A stretch of 5,526 bases of DNA from a virus. How positions within the stretch are numbered: position 1 is the stretch's first letter; each line of letters opens with the position of its first letter. The stretch spans positions 1 to 5,526 of the IMG/VR virus record IMGVR_UViG_3300045988_097647. The stretch is one strand, 5' to 3'. Of this stretch, positions 1 to 5,526 are shown in pieces. Made by a program: the position numbers and the translations under genes. The notes beneath the pieces are model-generated. The model was not told where the DNA came from. It searched no databases and was given only the letters and a program-made list of their open reading frames with translations.

Positions 1-79
1 ATTTTTTTTGCTCCTTAAATACAAACCAAGACACAAAATGTTAAGAATTTTTTCCCAAAAAGCGGGAGTAGCTTTTTTC
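1..79. repeat. Terminal redundancy of a circular genome (identical to 5448..5526)
   Basis: Positions 1-79 (attttttttgctccttaaatacaaaccaagacacaaaatgttaagaattttttcccaaaaagcgggagtagcttttttc) match 5448-5526 base for base. This implies a 5447-nt circular unit opened at an arbitrary point. Confidence 0.9.
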
Positions 80-310
80 TTCCGCCTGCGCTGCAGCTGA
101 GTGGCGAAAGCCATTTACGTCGTCAGTACCTCTTTTCTGCATGTTAACCAAATCATCCTGCATAGCGGCAGAAATAGCTTTAAGGCTTGCAGAGCCTTCG
201 CGGTTGTAGGTGCCATGACGAAACATATCAATAAAATCAACAACCTCTTGGATAAAAGGAATTACAGTGGACACGAGAAAGGTTAAAATTGCAGTAGTTT
301 TGTTTGACAT
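41..310 (-). CDS. Hypothetical small membrane protein (89 aa) with one N-terminal TM helix; candidate lysis or membrane-targeting accessory protein
   Basis: The ORF track gives 41..316 using a TTG start. An in-frame ATG at 310-308 has the SD GAGGTGA 6 nt upstream, and this SD overlaps the VP2 stop. Product: MSNKTTAILTFLVSTVIPFIQEVVDFI... followed by a hydrophilic C-terminal region (REGSASLKAISAAMQDDLVNMQKRGTDDVNG...). Residues ~6-22 form a hydrophobic helix containing a Pro. Stop TAA at 41-43. Confidence 0.5.
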   Translation of the reverse strand: MSNKTTAILTFLVSTVIPFIQEVVDFIDMFRHGTYNREGSASLKAISAAMQDDLVNMQKRGTDDVNGFRHSAAAQAEEKSYSRFLGKNS

Positions 311-321
311 AATCAATCACC

Positions 322-1119
322 TCATTTAGAAAAATAATTAGCAATACCGGAAAACAAACGATTAGCAGCACGGCCAATAGTATTCCAAGGTAAACCGTCA
401 TCAGAAAGGCCGAGGTCCTTATAATCCTTATTACGAGAAGTCTTATAATCATAATCAGCCTTAGCAACATTAGATAGCTGTGCATTATAAGCGGCAGAAC
501 TATTAGCAGCATTACCTTGAGCCAGCATCATAGTAGCTTGAGCAGGCATAACAACATTCATCATATACTGCTGACTAGCCTTTTGAGCGTCAATATACTC
601 GCCTTGCTTTTGAGCATTAGCTAAATTTTGCTTAACTAAAGCTAAATTGTCATTGTAAGAATCAGCAGCCAGCTTATTGGCAACAGAAATACCATACGTT
701 TCAGCATCATACTTCTTCGCACTAGCTCCAGCTAAAATAGTTTGAGCAGCTAAATTTTTTATTTGTTCATCGCTCATCTTTTCGGCAACCTGAGCTTGAC
801 GATTAGCAGCCTTAGCGGAATTACCAGCAGCAGAAGCAGACATACCAGCAGTAACACCTTCACCGAGATTATAGTTTGCAGAAAGAGCAGAAGCACCATT
901 AATAGAACCACCAATGCCTTGCGTAGCAGCAAGCATGGGATTAAGTCCAGCTTTTTGCATATCTTCCATAGCCCATTGATAACGATGCTGATAATTATAT
1001 ACATTACGCTGATTAGCTACAGTTGCAGCATGGCGAGCAGCAGAGTTAGAAAGAGAACCACCAATGAGAGACGAAATACCACCAGCAATAGCTCCAGCAG
1101 CAGATCCAAGAAATGACAT
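322..1119 (-). CDS. VP2: Minor capsid / DNA pilot protein VP2
   Basis: 265-aa ORF immediately downstream of VP1 (VP1 stop TAA, then AAAAAAGGAGTGATTTTTT, then ATG). N-terminus MSFLGSAAGAIAGGISSLIGG is Gly/Ala/Ser-rich. The protein is rich in Ala/Gln/Asn with low complexity and contains an AGLNPMLA-type segment, as in gokushovirus VP2 pilot proteins. Stop TGA at 322-324. Confidence 0.78.
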   Translation of the reverse strand: MSFLGSAAGAIAGGISSLIGGSLSNSAARHAATVANQRNVYNYQHRYQWAMEDMQKAGLNPMLAATQGIGGSINGASALSANYNLGEGVTAGMSASAAGNSAKAANRQAQVAEKMSDEQIKNLAAQTILAGASAKKYDAETYGISVANKLAADSYNDNLALVKQNLANAQKQGEYIDAQKASQQYMMNVVMPAQATMMLAQGNAANSSAAYNAQLSNVAKADYDYKTSRNKDYKDLGLSDDGLPWNTIGRAANRLFSGIANYFSK

Positions 1120-1136
1120 AAAAAATCACTCCTTTT

Positions 1137-2774
1137 TTAGAAATGACCCATCATACCGGGTATACCATACATAGGCATAGGACGAATACATTTTAAGTTA
1201 AATTTAACATCTAACAAGAAATGAGGATAGGACGGAACGGCAACTACGCGACTAATAGGCGGGTGGTCTTGAATAAACTCATCCGAAAGCGTAGGCAGCG
1301 TAGCGAATTTCTGTGACAAATGCCAAATGTCTAAAGGTTCTTTATAGGTTGAGCGGAATTGACCGGTAATCAAAGACGGCTTATAGCGATATTCTGCATA
1401 GCGTTCTTGATAGCCGAAAATTTTCTTATCATCATCATTTCCTTGGCAATAAATTTCAATGTTTTGAATAGCTTGTTCGCCTAAGTGAGCAAAGGACGGC
1501 CAATAGAAGTCCAGCACATCGGAGCGCAACCACATTTTATTAACGCCTTGCTGGTAAGTCAAATCAGCACGCACATTAATTAGGCCGATAACATAACCAA
1601 ATTCACTAAATGACTTGGTGAAAGCATGGTAACGCTGGGCGTTAAGTCCATATGCAGCTAAATTACCTTGTGGGGTTGTAGAGTCCGTAGAGCTTGTCTG
1701 AGTAACCGGGTTAATGTTCATCATACTAGAATGACTTCCAAGGAACTCAGGACGTTGCAAACGAGCATCGGGATTAGTTACACCGAAATGAGCTTGCAAT
1801 TTCTCCGTATAACGAGTACCGCCGCGGGCATCAATCTCATAATACCTTTGCAGCATAAACGCTTGACGAAGAGAATTAATGGTAATTGAAGTAGCAGAAG
1901 AAAGGTCAACTTTCAAACCGGATTTATAAGATTGAGGAAGGCCACTAACAGAACCCAAAGTAGGATTGAACGCCAAATGAGTACGGTCAGTAGGCGAAAG
2001 ATAAACGCCACCAGTAGCAACAGAACCAGAAACAGCATTATTATTAAAAATAAAATCACCGTCAGAAACAACAGGAGCAAATTGACCTAAAGGCAAATCA
2101 ACAGCCGGGCCTTTTTGTGGCCAAGGAAGCGCACCGGTGAAATAGTCATATCTTTTTCCGCGCGGAGCCGGGTCATACCAATTTTTAACACCGGACGGCA
2201 AACCATAATTAGGATTAGCGGTAGATTGTCCCATAGGTTCAAGTACTGTATTAGATTCGCCTTTGCTAACCTTAACAGATTTTTGCAGGTTCTCATCTCT
2301 GAACCACTCGTTCCAAATGAGCCAATACGAACGGAACGGCAAGCAGTTGACAGAAATATTCTTAAAAGTACCATTACTACAAGCTATACCCATATAATCG
2401 GGGAGCTTGTTTGTCATATCGCCGGTTAGAGAAACAGTAGGAACAAGGTAATCAGTAGAATCTTCGGGGTTCTCCTGCTCACCACAAAGATTTGCCCATT
2501 TATCATACACGAGCCTACTTGGAACAAAGAAAAAGAAGGACTCAATATAAATGTTATCCATGAACGGAACTACAGGAGTAGCCAAACGACAGAACTCCAC
2601 AGGGTTAAGAGTGAACGTATCGCCTGGAATAACTTCGTCGACAAAGTAAGGGATTAAAGCACCTTCGTTAAAGGTTGTCTTGTATACGTGACTTCTGTCA
2701 AAGACGGAGCGGCGAATATTAGCTTGCGGAATCATCGCAAAATGCGACTGATTAACGCGAATGTTACGAGCCAT
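1137..2774 (-). CDS. VP1: Major capsid protein VP1 (Microviridae F-like, gokushovirus type)
   Basis: 545-aa ORF, the largest in the window. N-terminus MARNIRVNQSHFAMIPQANIRRSVFDRSHV...IPGDTFTLNP is typical of gokushovirus VP1. ATG at 2774 is preceded on the coding strand by AAGGAG with an 8-nt spacer. Stop TAA at 1137-1139. The size (~530-570 aa class) and position upstream of a Gly/Ala-rich VP2 fit gokushovirus layout. Confidence 0.9.
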   Translation of the reverse strand: MARNIRVNQSHFAMIPQANIRRSVFDRSHVYKTTFNEGALIPYFVDEVIPGDTFTLNPVEFCRLATPVVPFMDNIYIESFFFFVPSRLVYDKWANLCGEQENPEDSTDYLVPTVSLTGDMTNKLPDYMGIACSNGTFKNISVNCLPFRSYWLIWNEWFRDENLQKSVKVSKGESNTVLEPMGQSTANPNYGLPSGVKNWYDPAPRGKRYDYFTGALPWPQKGPAVDLPLGQFAPVVSDGDFIFNNNAVSGSVATGGVYLSPTDRTHLAFNPTLGSVSGLPQSYKSGLKVDLSSATSITINSLRQAFMLQRYYEIDARGGTRYTEKLQAHFGVTNPDARLQRPEFLGSHSSMMNINPVTQTSSTDSTTPQGNLAAYGLNAQRYHAFTKSFSEFGYVIGLINVRADLTYQQGVNKMWLRSDVLDFYWPSFAHLGEQAIQNIEIYCQGNDDDKKIFGYQERYAEYRYKPSLITGQFRSTYKEPLDIWHLSQKFATLPTLSDEFIQDHPPISRVVAVPSYPHFLLDVKFNLKCIRPMPMYGIPGMMGHF

Positions 2775-2895
2775 AGTATTAACTCCTTAATTTTATTAAA
2801 CGACCGAAAAGCACGAGAACGGCATTTTCGTTATCAAATCAGAAGGGAATTAAAAATAAATAAAAGGCTTATTTTTGAAGGTTTTTCTGATTTTG

Positions 2896-2943
2896 TGTCA
2901 CCTTGACCAGTTACGATCAAGTAGGTAACTGGTCAAGGTGACA
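2896..2943 (-). promoter_or_regulatory. Perfect 19-bp inverted repeat with 10-nt loop in the VP3-VP1 intergenic region; candidate replication origin or structured regulatory element
   Basis: Plus 2896-2914 is tgtcaccttgaccagttac. The loop 2915-2924 is gatcaagtag. Plus 2925-2943 is gtaactggtcaaggtgaca, the exact reverse complement of the left arm. On the viral (coding) strand the loop reads CTACTTGATC. No U-tract follows on either strand, so it is not a classic intrinsic terminator. Confidence 0.6.
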
Positions 2944-2981
2944 AGGTTATTATTCTACATAAGTGAATATTAGCATATAGG

Positions 2982-3425
2982 TTATTTTTGCTCCAATTTA
3001 GACTCTCCTGCTACCGGAGTGACAGGTTCTACCGGAGTATCTACAATAGCTTTAGGTTTTAGGCCTAACTCTTCAAGCCTAGAAACAACTTTGGCGTCAG
3101 TAGATGTTAGAGCATCAAGCAGCATTCGTGGGTCATTGCCAAATTCAGCACGGACACTAGAAGGCAAATCTGCAAACTCTGCGTTAACATTAGCAACAAG
3201 GTTGCAAGCGGTTTCATAATCCGGGAGTAATGTGGTATCACCATATTGCAAAGTAGCCGGGTCATGTGCTCCAACAGAATCGACAATGCCGGTTGTGTTG
3301 AAATTGGCTATAATATGATGAATATCGCACTCTTCAGCGAAAGTTTGGTCAGCAAGCGAAGGCTGAGTAATTTCAACGTGAGGTTTTGGCGGTTGCTCAT
3401 CGTAAAGCGTATAAAATTTAGCCAT
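2982..3425 (-). CDS. VP3: Internal scaffolding protein VP3 (148 aa from ATG 3425; track ORF extends to TTG at 3572)
   Basis: The internal start MAKFYTLYDEQ... has SD AAAGGAG 10 nt upstream. The sequence ...ECDIHHIIANFNTTG...YGDTT...FADLPSSVRAEFGNDPRMLLDAL...LEELGL... matches the conserved gokushovirus VP3 pattern as I recall it (ECD-I..I...TG...YGD...F..LP...R..F.NDP...L.....LGL). It is acidic, as expected for a scaffolding protein. Stop TAA at 2982-2984. The 49-aa N-terminal extension in the track (TTG 3572) runs through a structured leader and is probably not translated. Confidence 0.6.
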   Translation of the reverse strand: MAKFYTLYDEQPPKPHVEITQPSLADQTFAEECDIHHIIANFNTTGIVDSVGAHDPATLQYGDTTLLPDYETACNLVANVNAEFADLPSSVRAEFGNDPRMLLDALTSTDAKVVSRLEELGLKPKAIVDTPVEPVTPVAGESKLEQK

Positions 3426-3543
3426 GCGTAAAAATCTCCTTTCTTTACCCGACAAGGCACGAGTAACGATTGCGTAAAGCGTAGGCTTGCGCCGTGTTAC
3501 GAAGATATGATATAGGCGGAGTGACCGGCAGCAAAGCACAGTC

Positions 3544-3562
3544 ATTTTGGCGTAGCCAAAAT
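3544..3562 (-). other. 8-bp stem / 3-nt loop hairpin in the putative VP3 leader
   Basis: Plus attttggc gta gccaaaat (3544-3551 and 3555-3562) is perfectly complementary. It lies ~120 nt upstream of the VP3 ATG on the coding strand, inside the region that the track reads as an N-terminal extension. Confidence 0.4.
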
Positions 3563-3635
3563 TTAAAAACAAAAAAGACGCTCAACATTACGCTGAACGC
3601 CTTTGATGTGTGGTATCACCACTTGCCTTATATGT

Positions 3636-3664
3636 AGTATACCACAAAATGAGAAAGCAGGCAA
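3636..3664 (-). promoter_or_regulatory. Sigma70-like promoter P2 (TTGCCT-N17-TGgTATACT) downstream of VP5 stop, upstream of VP3
   Basis: Coding strand: TAA TTGTAACGTACGC TTGCCT GCTTTCTCATTTTGTGG TATACT ACATATAAGG. The -35 is the complement of 3659-3664 and the -10 is the complement of 3636-3641, with a 17-nt spacer ending in TGG. The spacer shares GCTTT(T)TCTCAT...TGG with P1, and a TTGTAA motif lies just upstream, as at P1. Confidence 0.45.
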
Positions 3665-3677
3665 GCGTACGTTACAA

Positions 3678-3959
3678 TTACATTTTAGCACTCTCCGGAG
3701 GGGGGGTCAATAGCTCCGTGGCAGTGGAAAGCAGTAAAGTGGGATTTTGTGGGGAAAAGATACAGGTTTTGTCGTCAAACTCACCCAAATACATCAACAC
3801 AAAATCCTCGTGGTAGTCATGGATAATATTGGAACGCTCCGGGGTGGACACCTGATTAACCATAATTTGGAATTGACGAATGGCCATAGCATTATTTTGC
3901 TGAACGAAGGGCGGGTTCATCAGCTCGCCCTTGCGGTCATAAATACAGTATAATTTCAT
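3678..3959 (-). CDS. VP5: VP5-like non-structural protein (93 aa)
   Basis: ATG at 3959 has AAGGAG 8 nt upstream. N-terminus MKLYCIYDRKGELMNPPFVQQNNAMAIRQF and the ...YLGEFDDKT... segment resemble the F/Y-x-V/I-x-D-x-K...PF...A-x-R-x-F...GEFDD pattern I associate with gokushovirus VP5. Its position between VP4 and VP3 matches the gokushovirus order. Stop TAA at 3678-3680. The C-terminus PPPESAKM is encoded through a G7 homopolymer (3700-3706). Confidence 0.5.
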   Translation of the reverse strand: MKLYCIYDRKGELMNPPFVQQNNAMAIRQFQIMVNQVSTPERSNIIHDYHEDFVLMYLGEFDDKTCIFSPQNPTLLLSTATELLTPPPESAKM

Positions 3960-3963
3960 AAAA

Positions 3964-4293
3964 TCACTCCTTTTTTAAAGCAGAAAGCTGGGCATCAAGC
4001 TCGGCGTTAATTTTAGAAATGCCTTTATCCATAGAATCATCACGAGCAACCGAGTGAAGAAAAAGTTTAAAACGATGCAGCTGCTCTTTATCCATGAGAT
4101 AGTAAAAACCGTCATAGAGAACAATAGAAAAAGTATAACGACCATTTTCACCTTTGTAATCATTAGCAGCACGATAAGAACGAGCCTGACCATAAGAAGG
4201 GAATACAGTCCAAGACGGAAACTGTTCAAGAGATTTACGGATACGAGCATTATTTTTTTGGGAAAAATTAGGATTAAAATAATCTTTTAACAT
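3964..4293 (-). CDS. Hypothetical protein (110 aa), accessory ORF between VP4 and VP5
   Basis: The track ORF 3964..4350 begins at TTG. An in-frame ATG at 4293-4291 has the strong SD GTGAGGTAA 7 nt upstream and lies ~25 nt downstream of a consensus promoter. Product: MLKDYFNPNFSQKNNARIRKSLEQFPSW...GRYTFSIVLYDGFYYLMDKEQLHRFKLF...KINAELDAQLSALKKE. I do not recognise any motif in it. Stop TGA at 3964-3966 lies 4 nt before the next ATG, with the next gene's SD inside this ORF's 3' end, suggesting translational coupling. Confidence 0.55.
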   Translation of the reverse strand: MLKDYFNPNFSQKNNARIRKSLEQFPSWTVFPSYGQARSYRAANDYKGENGRYTFSIVLYDGFYYLMDKEQLHRFKLFLHSVARDDSMDKGISKINAELDAQLSALKKE

Positions 4294-4318
4294 ATTGCTT
4301 ACCTCACTTTCTATATAT

Positions 4319-4347
4319 ATTATACCATGAGAAAAAGCAACTGTCAA
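4319..4347 (-). promoter_or_regulatory. Near-consensus sigma70-type promoter P1 (TTGACA-N17-TGgTATAAT) driving ORF110/VP5
   Basis: Coding-strand sequence: TTGTTGACAG TTGCTTTTTCTCATGG TATAAT ATATATAGAAAGTGAGGTAAGCAAT ATG. The -35 TTGACA is the complement of 4342-4347. The 17-nt spacer ends in TGG, giving an extended -10. The -10 TATAAT is the complement of 4319-4324. The predicted start site lies ~25 nt before the ATG at 4293. Confidence 0.6.
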
Positions 4348-4350
4348 CAA

Positions 4351-4380
4351 CTTTTTACAACTTTTTACAACTTTTACAAA
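4351..4380 (-). repeat. Three tandem 10-bp direct repeats (coding strand TTGTAAAAAG x3, third copy TTTGTAAAAG) abutting the -35 of P1 and overlapping the Rep stop codon
   Basis: Plus strand reads ctttttacaa ctttttacaa cttttacaaa (4351-4380). The coding strand reads TTTGTAAAAG TTGTAAAAAG TTGTAAAAAG TTGTTGACA. The Rep stop TAA at 4374-4376 lies inside the array. Confidence 0.7.
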
Positions 4381-5318
4381 CCTAAATTATCAAAATCACG
4401 CTCAAATTGTTCCTGCCGGTGCTTCAAAATCTTCTCTTTTGCTTCCAGCCTTTTGCAATCGATGACGGCAGCCTTTGCATTTTCGGCCTTATTTTGCTTG
4501 TATATACTATACCAAACGGGGTTACTGCGCTCAAATAGTGTTTGATAATAGCGAGGTATCTTATATTTAGCTCCATTAATAGTTACAAAGCCTAATTTAA
4601 AAATATCTTCTGAATAAAGGCCAAAATAATCGGCTCCTATGCCAGGCTTAAGAGAACTACCGACAAACTCCGGAGATATGCCAAGAGCATCATACATACA
4701 GGCATTTTTACCGGTCTGCTTTTTAAGGCTATATTTAGCAACATACCGGGCGGATTCAAAGGTAATCGCTCCAACAGTGTTGAAACCATATGGCCAAAGC
4801 CGCTCCAACGTAGGGGAACGAAAAAGATTGTAACCAGCTGTTAACGCCGATACTTTGCGAACATCCGAAGGAAACCAACCAAAGCACAAAATATGATAAT
4901 GCGGCCTGCGGTTAAGATCGCCATACTCACCGCAACAAAGAAAACGTATCTTAGAATTGTCATGATAATCTAAATAACGACGTAACCTTTTAAAAAAAAG
5001 TTGTAAATGCTCACGATGCAGCGAGCAGTCAGCTGGAAGGCAATCATCGTTATAGGTTAACGTGATGAAGCAGTTATGCAAATGCAGTTTAGCCTCATGA
5101 ACGCAACGAATAGCCCAATCATTAGCCTTGTCAAGACGGCAGCCTAAGCATTGACCGCACGGAACGACAACAGCATAATTATTAGCTAGCTCATTTTTAG
5201 CATACTCCAACGATTTACCGGACAGCTGACGATAAGCAAAAAAATTTGATAGCTCATACTTGCCGTTAGCGTTAGGCACAGCAGAACGTTTAGCAAACAT
5301 AGGATTAAGGCAAGTCAT
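4374..5318 (-). CDS. VP4: Replication initiation protein VP4 (rolling-circle Rep, phiX174 gene A family)
   Basis: 317-aa ORF in the track, 4374..5327, which starts at an in-frame GTG at 5327. The first ATG is at 5318 (the 4th codon of the track ORF). RCR motif 1 CFITLTY lies at 5052-5072. Motif 2 HYH, within PHYHILCF, lies at 4893-4901. Motif 3 YVAKYSLKK places the catalytic Tyr residues near 4731-4745. A CGQCLGC zinc-finger-like cluster, common in gokushovirus VP4, is present. Stop TAA at 4374-4376. Confidence 0.9.
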   Translation of the reverse strand: MTCLNPMFAKRSAVPNANGKYELSNFFAYRQLSGKSLEYAKNELANNYAVVVPCGQCLGCRLDKANDWAIRCVHEAKLHLHNCFITLTYNDDCLPADCSLHREHLQLFFKRLRRYLDYHDNSKIRFLCCGEYGDLNRRPHYHILCFGWFPSDVRKVSALTAGYNLFRSPTLERLWPYGFNTVGAITFESARYVAKYSLKKQTGKNACMYDALGISPEFVGSSLKPGIGADYFGLYSEDIFKLGFVTINGAKYKIPRYYQTLFERSNPVWYSIYKQNKAENAKAAVIDCKRLEAKEKILKHRQEQFERDFDNLGL

Positions 5319-5335
5319 AATACACACACTTTCTG

Positions 5336-5449
5336 CTACATGCGGATACCGCCGCGCATGTTGCGAGATTTAAGATTTTTAAGCCGCGGAACGGCGTGAT
5401 TACGAAAGTTCCGGCGTGAACTACCGCGAGAAATTCTACTTCTTCTCAT
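5336..5449 (-). CDS. VP8: Small arginine-rich DNA-binding protein (VP8 / phiX174 J-like), 37 aa
   Basis: Hand translation of the reverse complement of 5336..5449: ATG AGA AGA AGT AGA ATT TCT CGC GGT AGT TCA CGC CGG AAC TTT CGT AAT CAC GCC GTT CCG CGG CTT AAA AAT CTT AAA TCT CGC AAC ATG CGC GGC GGT ATC CGC ATG TAG. This gives MRRSRISRGSSRRNFRNHAVPRLKNLKSRNMRGGIRM, with 11 Arg and 3 Lys in 37 residues. SD AAGGAG lies 8 nt upstream. The ORF sits directly upstream of Rep. The ATG spans the circular junction (5449 equals window position 2). It is missing from the ORF track because of the length cutoff. Confidence 0.6.
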   Translation of the reverse strand: MRRSRISRGSSRRNFRNHAVPRLKNLKSRNMRGGIRM

Positions 5450-5526
5450 TTTTTTTGCTCCTTAAATACAAACCAAGACACAAAATGTTAAGAATTTTTT
5501 CCCAAAAAGCGGGAGTAGCTTTTTTC
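5448..5526. repeat. Second copy of terminal redundancy (circularisation overlap)
   Basis: Exact copy of window positions 1-79. Confidence 0.9.

Follow-up and report, generated by a model that had tools for sequence, protein, structure and literature searches.

The window analysed here is the whole stretch of 5,526 nucleotides (nt) that forms positions 1 to 5,526 of IMG/VR virus record IMGVR_UViG_3300045988_097647, and it is a complete gokushovirus genome with its genes on the minus strand. We find that ORF89, an open reading frame (ORF) between the genes for VP2 and VP8, is, judged by its conservation, a genuine gene beyond reasonable doubt, that purifying selection on its protein equals in strength that on the capsid gene and is strongest on the hydrophobic helix, and that it encodes the only predicted membrane protein in a genome without a muralytic enzyme. 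The genome yielded no candidate lysis gene other than ORF89, whose lytic role we infer, and we tentatively favor, with less than even confidence, the reading that its product is the lysis effector. The family is already catalogued as PHROG 23638, function unknown.

ORF89 runs on the minus strand from an ATG at 310-308 to a TAA stop at 43-41, and its product of 89 amino acids (aa) is MSNKTTAILTFLVSTVIPFIQEVVDFIDMFRHGTYNREGSASLKAISAAMQDDLVNMQKRGTDDVNGFRHSAAAQAEEKSYSRFLGKNS. Its Shine-Dalgarno (SD) sequence, GAGGTGAT at 323-316, ends 5 nt before the ATG and overlaps the TGA stop of VP2 (324-322), the sole overlap of what is otherwise a stand-alone ORF; the VP8 ATG (5449) lies 38 nt past the ORF89 stop, across the junction of the circle, and is preceded by an AAGGAG site. 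An earlier note on this DNA had described an ORF at 41-310, with a good SD overlapping the VP2 stop and a place between VP2 and VP8, in which a few polar residues precede a proline-containing hydrophobic helix and a hydrophilic tail. That description holds, with MSNK, 16 uncharged residues including P18 and a tail of 69 residues; the strand, which had been left unstated, is minus.

PHROG 23638 matches ORF89 at E=7.4e-15 (residues 1-86 against positions 1-73 of the 79 in the profile), and a 79-aa homologue from a far clade matches the same profile at E=5e-50. The PHROG 23638 protein ARQ16029.1 (KX513872, human gut gokushovirus) is a true homologue in the equal position after VP2; ORF89 represents a longer, 89-aa branch that is 40% identical to the 79-aa branch and has an extended middle region, and the two branches end in SRFLGKN and SRFFGSWRDAK, respectively. 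A search of 5.8 billion proteins returned 88 homologue clusters with 39-96% identity, nearly all of 86-96 aa (range 75-100 aa) and nearly all from contigs of ∼5.4 kb. Similarly, we found homologues in 241 contigs or loci of IMG/VR and in 20 microvirus records of GenBank, where they are mostly unannotated or labeled ‘hypothetical protein’; throughout, the gene follows VP2. An exhaustive profile search of 1.8 billion representatives yielded just 28 clusters, all microvirus-sized, and the family is therefore narrow and confined to microvirus-sized contigs; the same search gave no link to any characterized family. ORF89 has no family in Pfam at E≤0.01, no match in an NCBIfam scan and none in PADLOC. 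A sequence profile search of the PDB gave just sub-threshold matches to geopilin (E=0.84 and 1.5), and Foldseek of the predicted model against the PDB reached a best E of 1.1, to generic helical hairpins; a type IV pilin-like helix was rejected, since the geopilin matches are sub-threshold and ORF89 has no leader, G|F site or E5. Among the gokushoviruses of gut and faeces, ORF89 is an essential-looking accessory gene of a single lineage.

The selection on ORF89 is like that on the capsid and replication genes. Nei-Gojobori estimates from 17 close genomes put the ratio of nonsynonymous to synonymous divergence (dN/dS) at 0.089 (dS 0.63) for ORF89, compared to 0.097 for VP1, 0.098 for VP3, 0.072 for VP4 and 0.070 for VP5; the ratio for VP2, which is mosaic, is 0.314. 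Identity between the 89-aa and 79-aa clades is 40% for ORF89, 36-40% for VP2-VP5 and 52% for VP1, and since the value for ORF89 is like that of VP2-VP5, ORF89 has co-diverged with the genome like a core gene. In-frame conservation, a check that the earlier note had proposed, came out in favor of the gene, with the frame intact in 84 of the 84 loci first examined (lengths 79-96 aa) and a dN/dS of 0.09. ORF89 might instead be a non-functional chance frame on a T-rich strand whose off-frame ORFs look hydrophobic, and indeed the other frames of these genomes hold many spurious Leu-, Phe- and Ile-rich ORFs, but frame, length, start and SD are kept in all 84 loci, the dN/dS of 0.09 is found with a dS of 0.63, and there is the match to a PHROG family. 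We therefore rejected a chance frame, to which we assign a negligible probability.

The constraint is distributed unevenly along the protein. The dN/dS of residues 1-27 is 0.016-0.021 at a dS of 0.44-0.77, while in the middle of the protein (alignment columns 28-94, which take in residues 28-36 and the linker) it reaches 0.11-0.29 inside a clade and 0.79 when clades are compared. Five synonymous codons are used for L9, four for V24 and four for P18, and the codons of S82 (AGC/TCC) and R83 (CGT/CGC) switch between clades with the residues kept. Because N-terminal synonymous sites vary freely, we conclude that the constraint is on the peptide and not on the DNA; for the same reason, we rejected an overlapping gene or cis element as the source of the N-terminal conservation, and a 91-aa off-frame hydrophobic ORF at 237-512 (minus strand) is unconstrained. 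The low N-terminal dN/dS is consistent with a specific contact between the helix and a partner.

At the other end of the gene, synonymous diversity is low in the close clade at codons 75-89 (window 41-85), and a cis element may therefore overlap the 3′ end of ORF89. Strongly reduced synonymous diversity was seen in the 17 close genomes only there and at VP3 residues 123-147 (∼2985-3059) and VP4 residues 299-314 (∼4374-4421). No alternative ORF accounts for these stretches, which are probably cis-acting elements (promoter, ribosome binding site or structure). The synonymous-site scan of these genomes found no overprinted gene in VP1, VP2 or VP5.

The predicted anatomy of the protein is that of a small membrane protein with a marginal helix. 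The best 19-residue Kyte-Doolittle (KD) mean is 1.78 and the White-Wimley (WW) octanol sum is -4.9 kcal/mol, both of which just pass the thresholds. AlphaFold2 (AF2), run with 22 sequences, returned a model with a mean predicted local distance difference test score (pLDDT) of 68, in which a helix at residues 3-31 (pLDDT 76-87) is followed by a turn, a second helix at residues 37-61 and a disordered stretch at residues 62-89, including a linker at 62-81 (pLDDT <50 at residues 64-81). The family signature begins M-x-x-K-T-T-x-I-L-T-F-[LI]-x-S-x-x-x-P-F-[IV]-[QR]-[ED]-x-x-D and continues, after a variable helix and linker, with [WY]-S-R-F-[LFI]-G/x and basic residues. A one-sided polar stripe of N3, T6, T10, S14, Q21, D25 and D28 lies within an arc of 0-100 degrees on the helical wheel. 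Invariant residues make up most of this stripe, and Q21, E22 and D25 are invariant in the family alignment. The N-terminal flank carries a charge of +1 in 12 of the 14 members and of 0 in the remaining two, and the C-terminal flank one of -1 to -2 in 13 of the 14 (it is +1 in P0105), so that by the positive-inside rule an N-in/C-out orientation is weakly favored; the net charge of the tail is -2 to +2 in all 14. Cleaved signal peptide and lipoprotein readings were rejected, as there is no A-x-A-like site and no Cys. The neighboring C-termini are all of a basic-aromatic-Gly type, SRFLGKNS in ORF89, NRLFSGIANYFSK in VP2 (322-360) and MRGGIRM in VP8 (5336-5356), with GGRYFGRR at the end of VP2 in the far clade. 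The motif shared by the three proteins could be a docking signal, or a coincidence.

The polar stripe on a marginally hydrophobic helix would also suit an oligomeric pore (T6, T10, S14, Q21, D25, D28), and a lone predicted transmembrane domain (TMD) that may run N-in/C-out is reminiscent of class III holins. ORF89 could be a holin-like pore former whose muralytic partner activity lies concealed in some other protein of the phage, but none of the genomes holds an endolysin, peptidase or spanin, we found no lipobox ORF of credible size, and ORF89 matches no Pfam holin family even at E=10. We consider a holin-like role very unlikely.

If ORF89 is the lysis effector, the N-terminal helix (residues 5-20) would most likely insert into the host cytoplasmic membrane and would continue to residue 31 as an acidic amphipathic helix. 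The invariant face, made up of hydroxyl, acidic and proline residues, would then dock on a conserved membrane protein or on a lipid-linked step of cell-wall synthesis; alternatively, this face could drive self-association. Either route would trigger autolysis and virion release, and ORF89 would be one of the proteins for single-gene lysis (Sgl), unrelated in sequence to phiX174 E. We compared this proposal with the gene content of the 90 genomes that carry ORF89, which hold only VP4, a variable soluble ORF, VP5, VP3, VP1, VP2, ORF89 and VP8; the only non-core gene besides ORF89 is thus the variable, apparently soluble ORF between VP4 and VP5. A separate peptidoglycan hydrolase or known amurin, which the earlier note had said would count against ORF89, is absent from all 90, as are peptidases and lysins generally, and the 158 genomes collected hold no peptidase, M15 or other. 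ORF89 also has features of the Sgl class, with 89 aa, an SD, a hydrophobic helix and a phage without a muralytic enzyme. Searches for Sgls have asked for an ORF of 25 codons or more that has an SD site and a TMD (PMC7693330); ORF89 has the length, the SD and a predicted TMD. Further points in favor are the core-gene-like constraint on ORF89 and its concentration on the helix, the synonymous-site scan, which gave no overprinted gene in VP1, VP2 or VP5, and the small hydrophobic ORFs that sister lineages keep in the slot between VP2 and VP8. In the literature covered, no lysis gene is reported for gokushoviruses (PMC7062461, PMC3394797, PMC9239249), in agreement with the statement in the earlier note that they lack a recognized one.

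Several points weigh against a lytic function. First, none of the homology searches ties ORF89 to lysis. Second, the hydrophobic segment is marginal (16 residues, KD 1.78, WW -4.9 kcal versus ∼-17 for E). Third, a strong SD and tight coupling between virion genes would be expected of a structural or assembly gene rather than of a lysis gene whose dosage is limited; moreover, the C-terminal SRF[LF]G motif resembles the ends of VP2 and VP8 and hints at docking on the capsid. Fourth, Sgls diverge quickly, with 38-47% identity between closely related phages (PMC7693330), while ORF89 is far more conserved; in the same screen, 178 of 293 candidates with a TMD and an SD had no lytic effect (PMC7693330). 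Finally, coliphage EC6098 lyses Escherichia coli with six annotated genes, none of the ORF89 family (PMC7062461), and about 9 of 37 surveyed genomes in which VP2 and VP8 are adjacent have no room for an ORF between them, so that such a gene is not generally needed.

The expression signals of ORF89 bear on a role in the virion. In 80 of the 84 genomes in which both genes were found, ORF89 starts 1-18 nt past the VP2 stop; its homologues are preceded by GGAGG, AAGGAG or GAGGTG, and in the far clade the stop of the ORF89 homologue and the ATG of VP8 share the letters ATGA. The strength of the ORF89 SD is on par with that of the structural genes. As read from these signals, ORF89 appears to be translationally coupled to VP2 and made with the late structural genes. 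The main rival to lysis is that ORF89 is a virion-associated, assembly or entry accessory protein, which would be produced along with VP2 and VP8 and, by its SRF[LF]G-basic motif, be packaged into the procapsid or dock within it, with a helix that acts with VP2 in membrane penetration or DNA delivery, or that tethers assembly to the membrane. Consistent with this idea are the place of ORF89 in the structural block VP1-VP2-ORF89-VP8, with the close spacing, the overlap and the SD just described, a dN/dS equal to that of the core virion genes, and the resemblance of its C-terminal motif to the C-termini of VP2 (GGRYFGRR, KIYFGG, NYFSK) and VP8 (RGG[FI]R[LIM]); the J protein of phiX174 anchors to the capsid by its C-terminus. 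However, this motif resemblance spans just 3-4 residues, and ORF89 is ∼90% identical in genomes where the adjacent, mosaic VP2 is 54-95% identical, so that ORF89 does not co-vary with the variable part of VP2. Moreover, just 20 of 2474 GenBank records with a related VP1 hold ORF89, which is absent from most gokushoviruses, and isolates such as Chp2, phiMH2K and EC6098 (PMC7062461) form particles and infect in its absence. The fallback named in the earlier note, a minor virion or assembly protein that interacts with the membrane, is still a live reading, although we judge the virion or entry role unlikely.

We surveyed the slot between VP2 and VP8 in the nearest relatives without ORF89 and in 68 other gokushoviruses retrieved by their VP8 motif. 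The slot in sister lineages often holds small hydrophobic or amphipathic-cationic ORFs that are unrelated to ORF89. A 32-aa amphipathic, C-terminally cationic ORF (MIDTILKFVNVLLNSGSAIWEAFKAVKKLFKK) lies exactly between VP2 and VP8 in 16 genomes of a sister lineage and has a dN/dS of 0.10; its carriers are L095, L097, L100, L101, L114, L117, L119, L122, L131, L144, L147, L156, L158 and L161, together with L165 (second copy, 22-120) and L087 (PV067910 2299-2397), and it is unannotated in GenBank. Other lineages have hydrophobic ORFs of 26-36 aa in this slot (L137, L121, MG945405).

A slot that holds differing small hydrophobic ORFs and is empty in some lineages is also what might be expected of accessory functions. 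ORF89 could be a non-lytic membrane protein that acts on the host or on rival phages, by superinfection exclusion, by a block of division or as a modulator of burst size like phiX174 K. Small single-pass membrane proteins of phages often have such roles, one case being PhiNM1 Gp11, a small membrane protein that blocks peptidoglycan synthesis and division (PMC11237401), and in the GenBank record of the gokushovirus phiMH2K small ORFs are already grouped as ‘E and K-like’. Genes for exclusion and accessory functions are mostly variable or dispensable, however, while ORF89 is constrained like a capsid gene and kept in all 241 related contigs found, and there is no PADLOC match. Kirchberger and colleagues are said to have mapped microvirus superinfection exclusion, in 2021, to the hypervariable region of VP2, and ORF89 lies outside that region. 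A non-lytic role of this type seems to us distinctly unlikely.

The wider form of the lysis proposal, which we consider unlikely as a whole, is that ORF89/PHROG 23638 is the first lysis gene of the Gokushovirinae. ORF89 would be a slowly evolving, stand-alone ‘protein antibiotic’: the invariant Thr/Ser/Pro/acidic face of its helix would bind a conserved membrane step in the synthesis of the cell wall, in a gut host that is probably Gram-positive (Firmicute-like). Gokushoviruses would then in general keep a lysis gene at the VP2-VP8 junction, where different lineages would have unrelated small peptides that act on membranes.

The exit of gokushoviruses from the host is an acknowledged gap (PMC7062461, PMC3394797), and these viruses are among the most abundant phages of the human gut. 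The ORF89 family offers a short, synthesizable lysis candidate that is conserved across hundreds of genomes, with P18, the T6/T10/S14/Q21/D25 face and the SRF[LF]G motif as mutational targets. If the lytic role is correct, ORF89 would be a new, non-homologous protein of the Sgl class, the first for the Gokushovirinae, and a new protein that inhibits the biogenesis of the envelope, perhaps that of Gram-positive gut bacteria. The finding would then suggest, too, where other gokushoviruses may keep their lysis genes. If ORF89 is instead a virion or entry factor, it would be an extra component of a particle thought to have six proteins. Support for either role is circumstantial so far, and either result would be informative.

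Evidence on the host comes from a few observations. The collection of bacterial genomes yielded no prophage copy of an ORF89 phage, and its single match is a free contig of 5535 nt (L085, SFFE01000042.1) in a metagenome-assembled genome labeled ‘Clostridiales bacterium’, with an ORF89 that is 94% identical; the placement of this contig is probably a binning artefact. One longer IMG/VR contig, L027, is a concatemer of the genome. A strong SD site stands before all genes of the genome, and this, together with a sigma-70-type promoter that matches its consensus at 12 of 12 positions, argues against a Bacteroidetes host.

The features of the window are listed in the table below. Window positions 1-79 are identical to 5448-5526, and from this 79-nt terminal repeat it follows that the molecule is a circle of 5447 nt. 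Three tandem copies of TTGTAAAA(A)G, in window 4319-4379 (minus strand), abut the 12/12 promoter upstream of the accessory ORF and may be an operator, an UP element or a piece of the replication origin region. A terminator-like hairpin with a 14-bp stem and a T-run follows VP5 (window 3574-3604, minus strand); it lies in the VP5-VP3 gap at 3429-3677, which is ∼250 nt of non-coding DNA and also holds two promoter-like sites. The slot between VP4 and VP5 (window 3964-4350, minus strand) is occupied across relatives by non-homologous ORFs, none with a family match: 109 or 128 aa in the window, an 84-aa family in 67 loci and 74-120 aa elsewhere (for example, L021 1959-2213, L007 2176-2535, L001 2481-2753 and L090 4065-4427). 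This slot looks like a swappable accessory-gene position. VP2 is mosaic among genomes that are otherwise ∼90% identical (L005-L019, L085), with 54-95% identity and a dN/dS of 0.31, and it has at least three unrelated C-terminal types among relatives, which fits the hypervariable pilot-protein region described for microviruses.

Table. Genes of the window, parts of ORF89 and the promoter, in window coordinates
Feature	Position	Strand	Match or remark
VP4	5318-4374	minus	PF23343
Promoter, TG-extended TTGACA-17-TATAAT	4347-4319	minus	sigma-70-type, 12/12 match
Accessory ORF	4293-3964	minus	without family; probably starts at M20 of the 128-aa ORF listed
VP5	3959-3678	minus	PF20577
VP3 scaffold	3425-2982	minus	PF09675
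VP1	2774-1137	minus	PF02305, E=3e-172
VP2 (DNA pilot protein)	1119-322	minus	phrog_8693 ‘pilot protein for DNA ejection’, E=5e-43
ORF89	310-41	minus	phrog_23638, E=7e-15
Hydrophobic segment TTAILTFLVSTVIPFI, ORF89 residues 5-20	251-298	minus	16 uncharged residues; probable single transmembrane or membrane-embedded helix
P18 of ORF89	257-259	minus	invariant in all members, four codons in use
Acidic amphipathic continuation QEVVDFIDMFR, ORF89 residues 21-31	218-250	minus	hydrophobic moment 0.53
Predicted helix 2, ORF89 residues 37-61	128-202	minus	AF2; sequence varies between clades
C-terminal motif S82-R-F-L-G86 of ORF89	53-67	minus	consensus SRF[LFI]G/x then basic residues; S82, R83, F84 invariant
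ORF89 3′ end, assembly duplicate of window 41-79 (39 nt)	5488-5526	minus	part of terminal repeat
VP8 (37 aa, Arg-rich, DNA-binding)	5449-5336	minus	phrog_10695; spans circular junction

The known system to which ORF89 had been compared in the earlier note is the E protein of phiX174, and this likeness stands only in part. Like ORF89, E has ∼90 aa and an N-terminal hydrophobic helix with a conserved proline, this helix is the most conserved part of the protein, and the gene belongs to a microvirus without a muralytic enzyme and adjoins a small gene for a DNA-binding protein (J or VP8). The proposed ‘phiX174 E-like architecture’ holds only coarsely, since size and a hydrophobic, proline-containing helix are shared but hydrophobicity, tail charge, topology, gene context and C-terminal motif differ. 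The hydrophobic segment of E is stronger and longer (KD 2.79 and WW -17.3 kcal, versus 1.78 and -4.9 for ORF89). The tail of E is strongly basic (+11) and cytoplasmic (N-out/C-in), whereas that of ORF89 is neutral with an acidic juxtamembrane helix, and the flank charges of ORF89 predict the opposite orientation. E is overprinted in the scaffold gene and weakly translated, while ORF89 is stand-alone, with a strong SD and coupling to the genes for VP2 and VP8. The C-terminal SRF[LF]G motif of ORF89 is conserved, unlike the C-terminal domain of E, which is reported to be sequence-tolerant. E is the MraY-inhibiting, SlyD-requiring single-gene lysis protein of the Bullavirinae, and the host of the ORF89 phage is probably not an enterobacterium. 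In line with the statement that ORF89 has no sequence similarity to E, BLASTP of ORF89 against E gave no alignment at E≤100, and PF04517 (Microvir_lysis) is absent even at E≤10 across 22 family members. ORF89 would work like E at most in outline, and it is not a member of the E family.

A holin-endolysin system has no counterpart here, as neither the window nor its relatives hold an ORF for an endolysin or peptidase and no holin family of Pfam matches. Similarly, we found no spanin pair; the lone lipobox-like match is a 36-aa off-frame ORF inside VP4, with no partner gene. Among the closest known proteins are phiX174 K and phiMH2K orfN, the latter labeled ‘similar to phiX174 E and K’ in its GenBank record. 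Like ORF89, these microvirus proteins are small, are hydrophobic in the N-terminal region and have no settled role. K and orfN, however, are non-essential and overprinted inside the replication gene, while ORF89, a stand-alone gene of the structural block, shows strong conservation; Pfam and PHROG scans, the sole tests made, found no homology of ORF89 to K or orfN.

The Sgls of single-stranded RNA (ssRNA) phages (MS2 L, LysM, Sgl-PP7 and the metagenomic Sgls, PMC7693330) are, like ORF89, small and lineage-specific, with an SD and a TMD, which in ORF89 is predicted. They evolve fast and are often overprinted, whereas ORF89 is stable and stand-alone, with a dN/dS like that of a core gene. Sgls are mutually unrelated in sequence, and the diverse hydrophobic ORFs of the gokushovirus VP2-VP8 slot mirror this; by analogy, the diversity of the slot would resemble that of the ssRNA-phage Sgls (PMC7693330).

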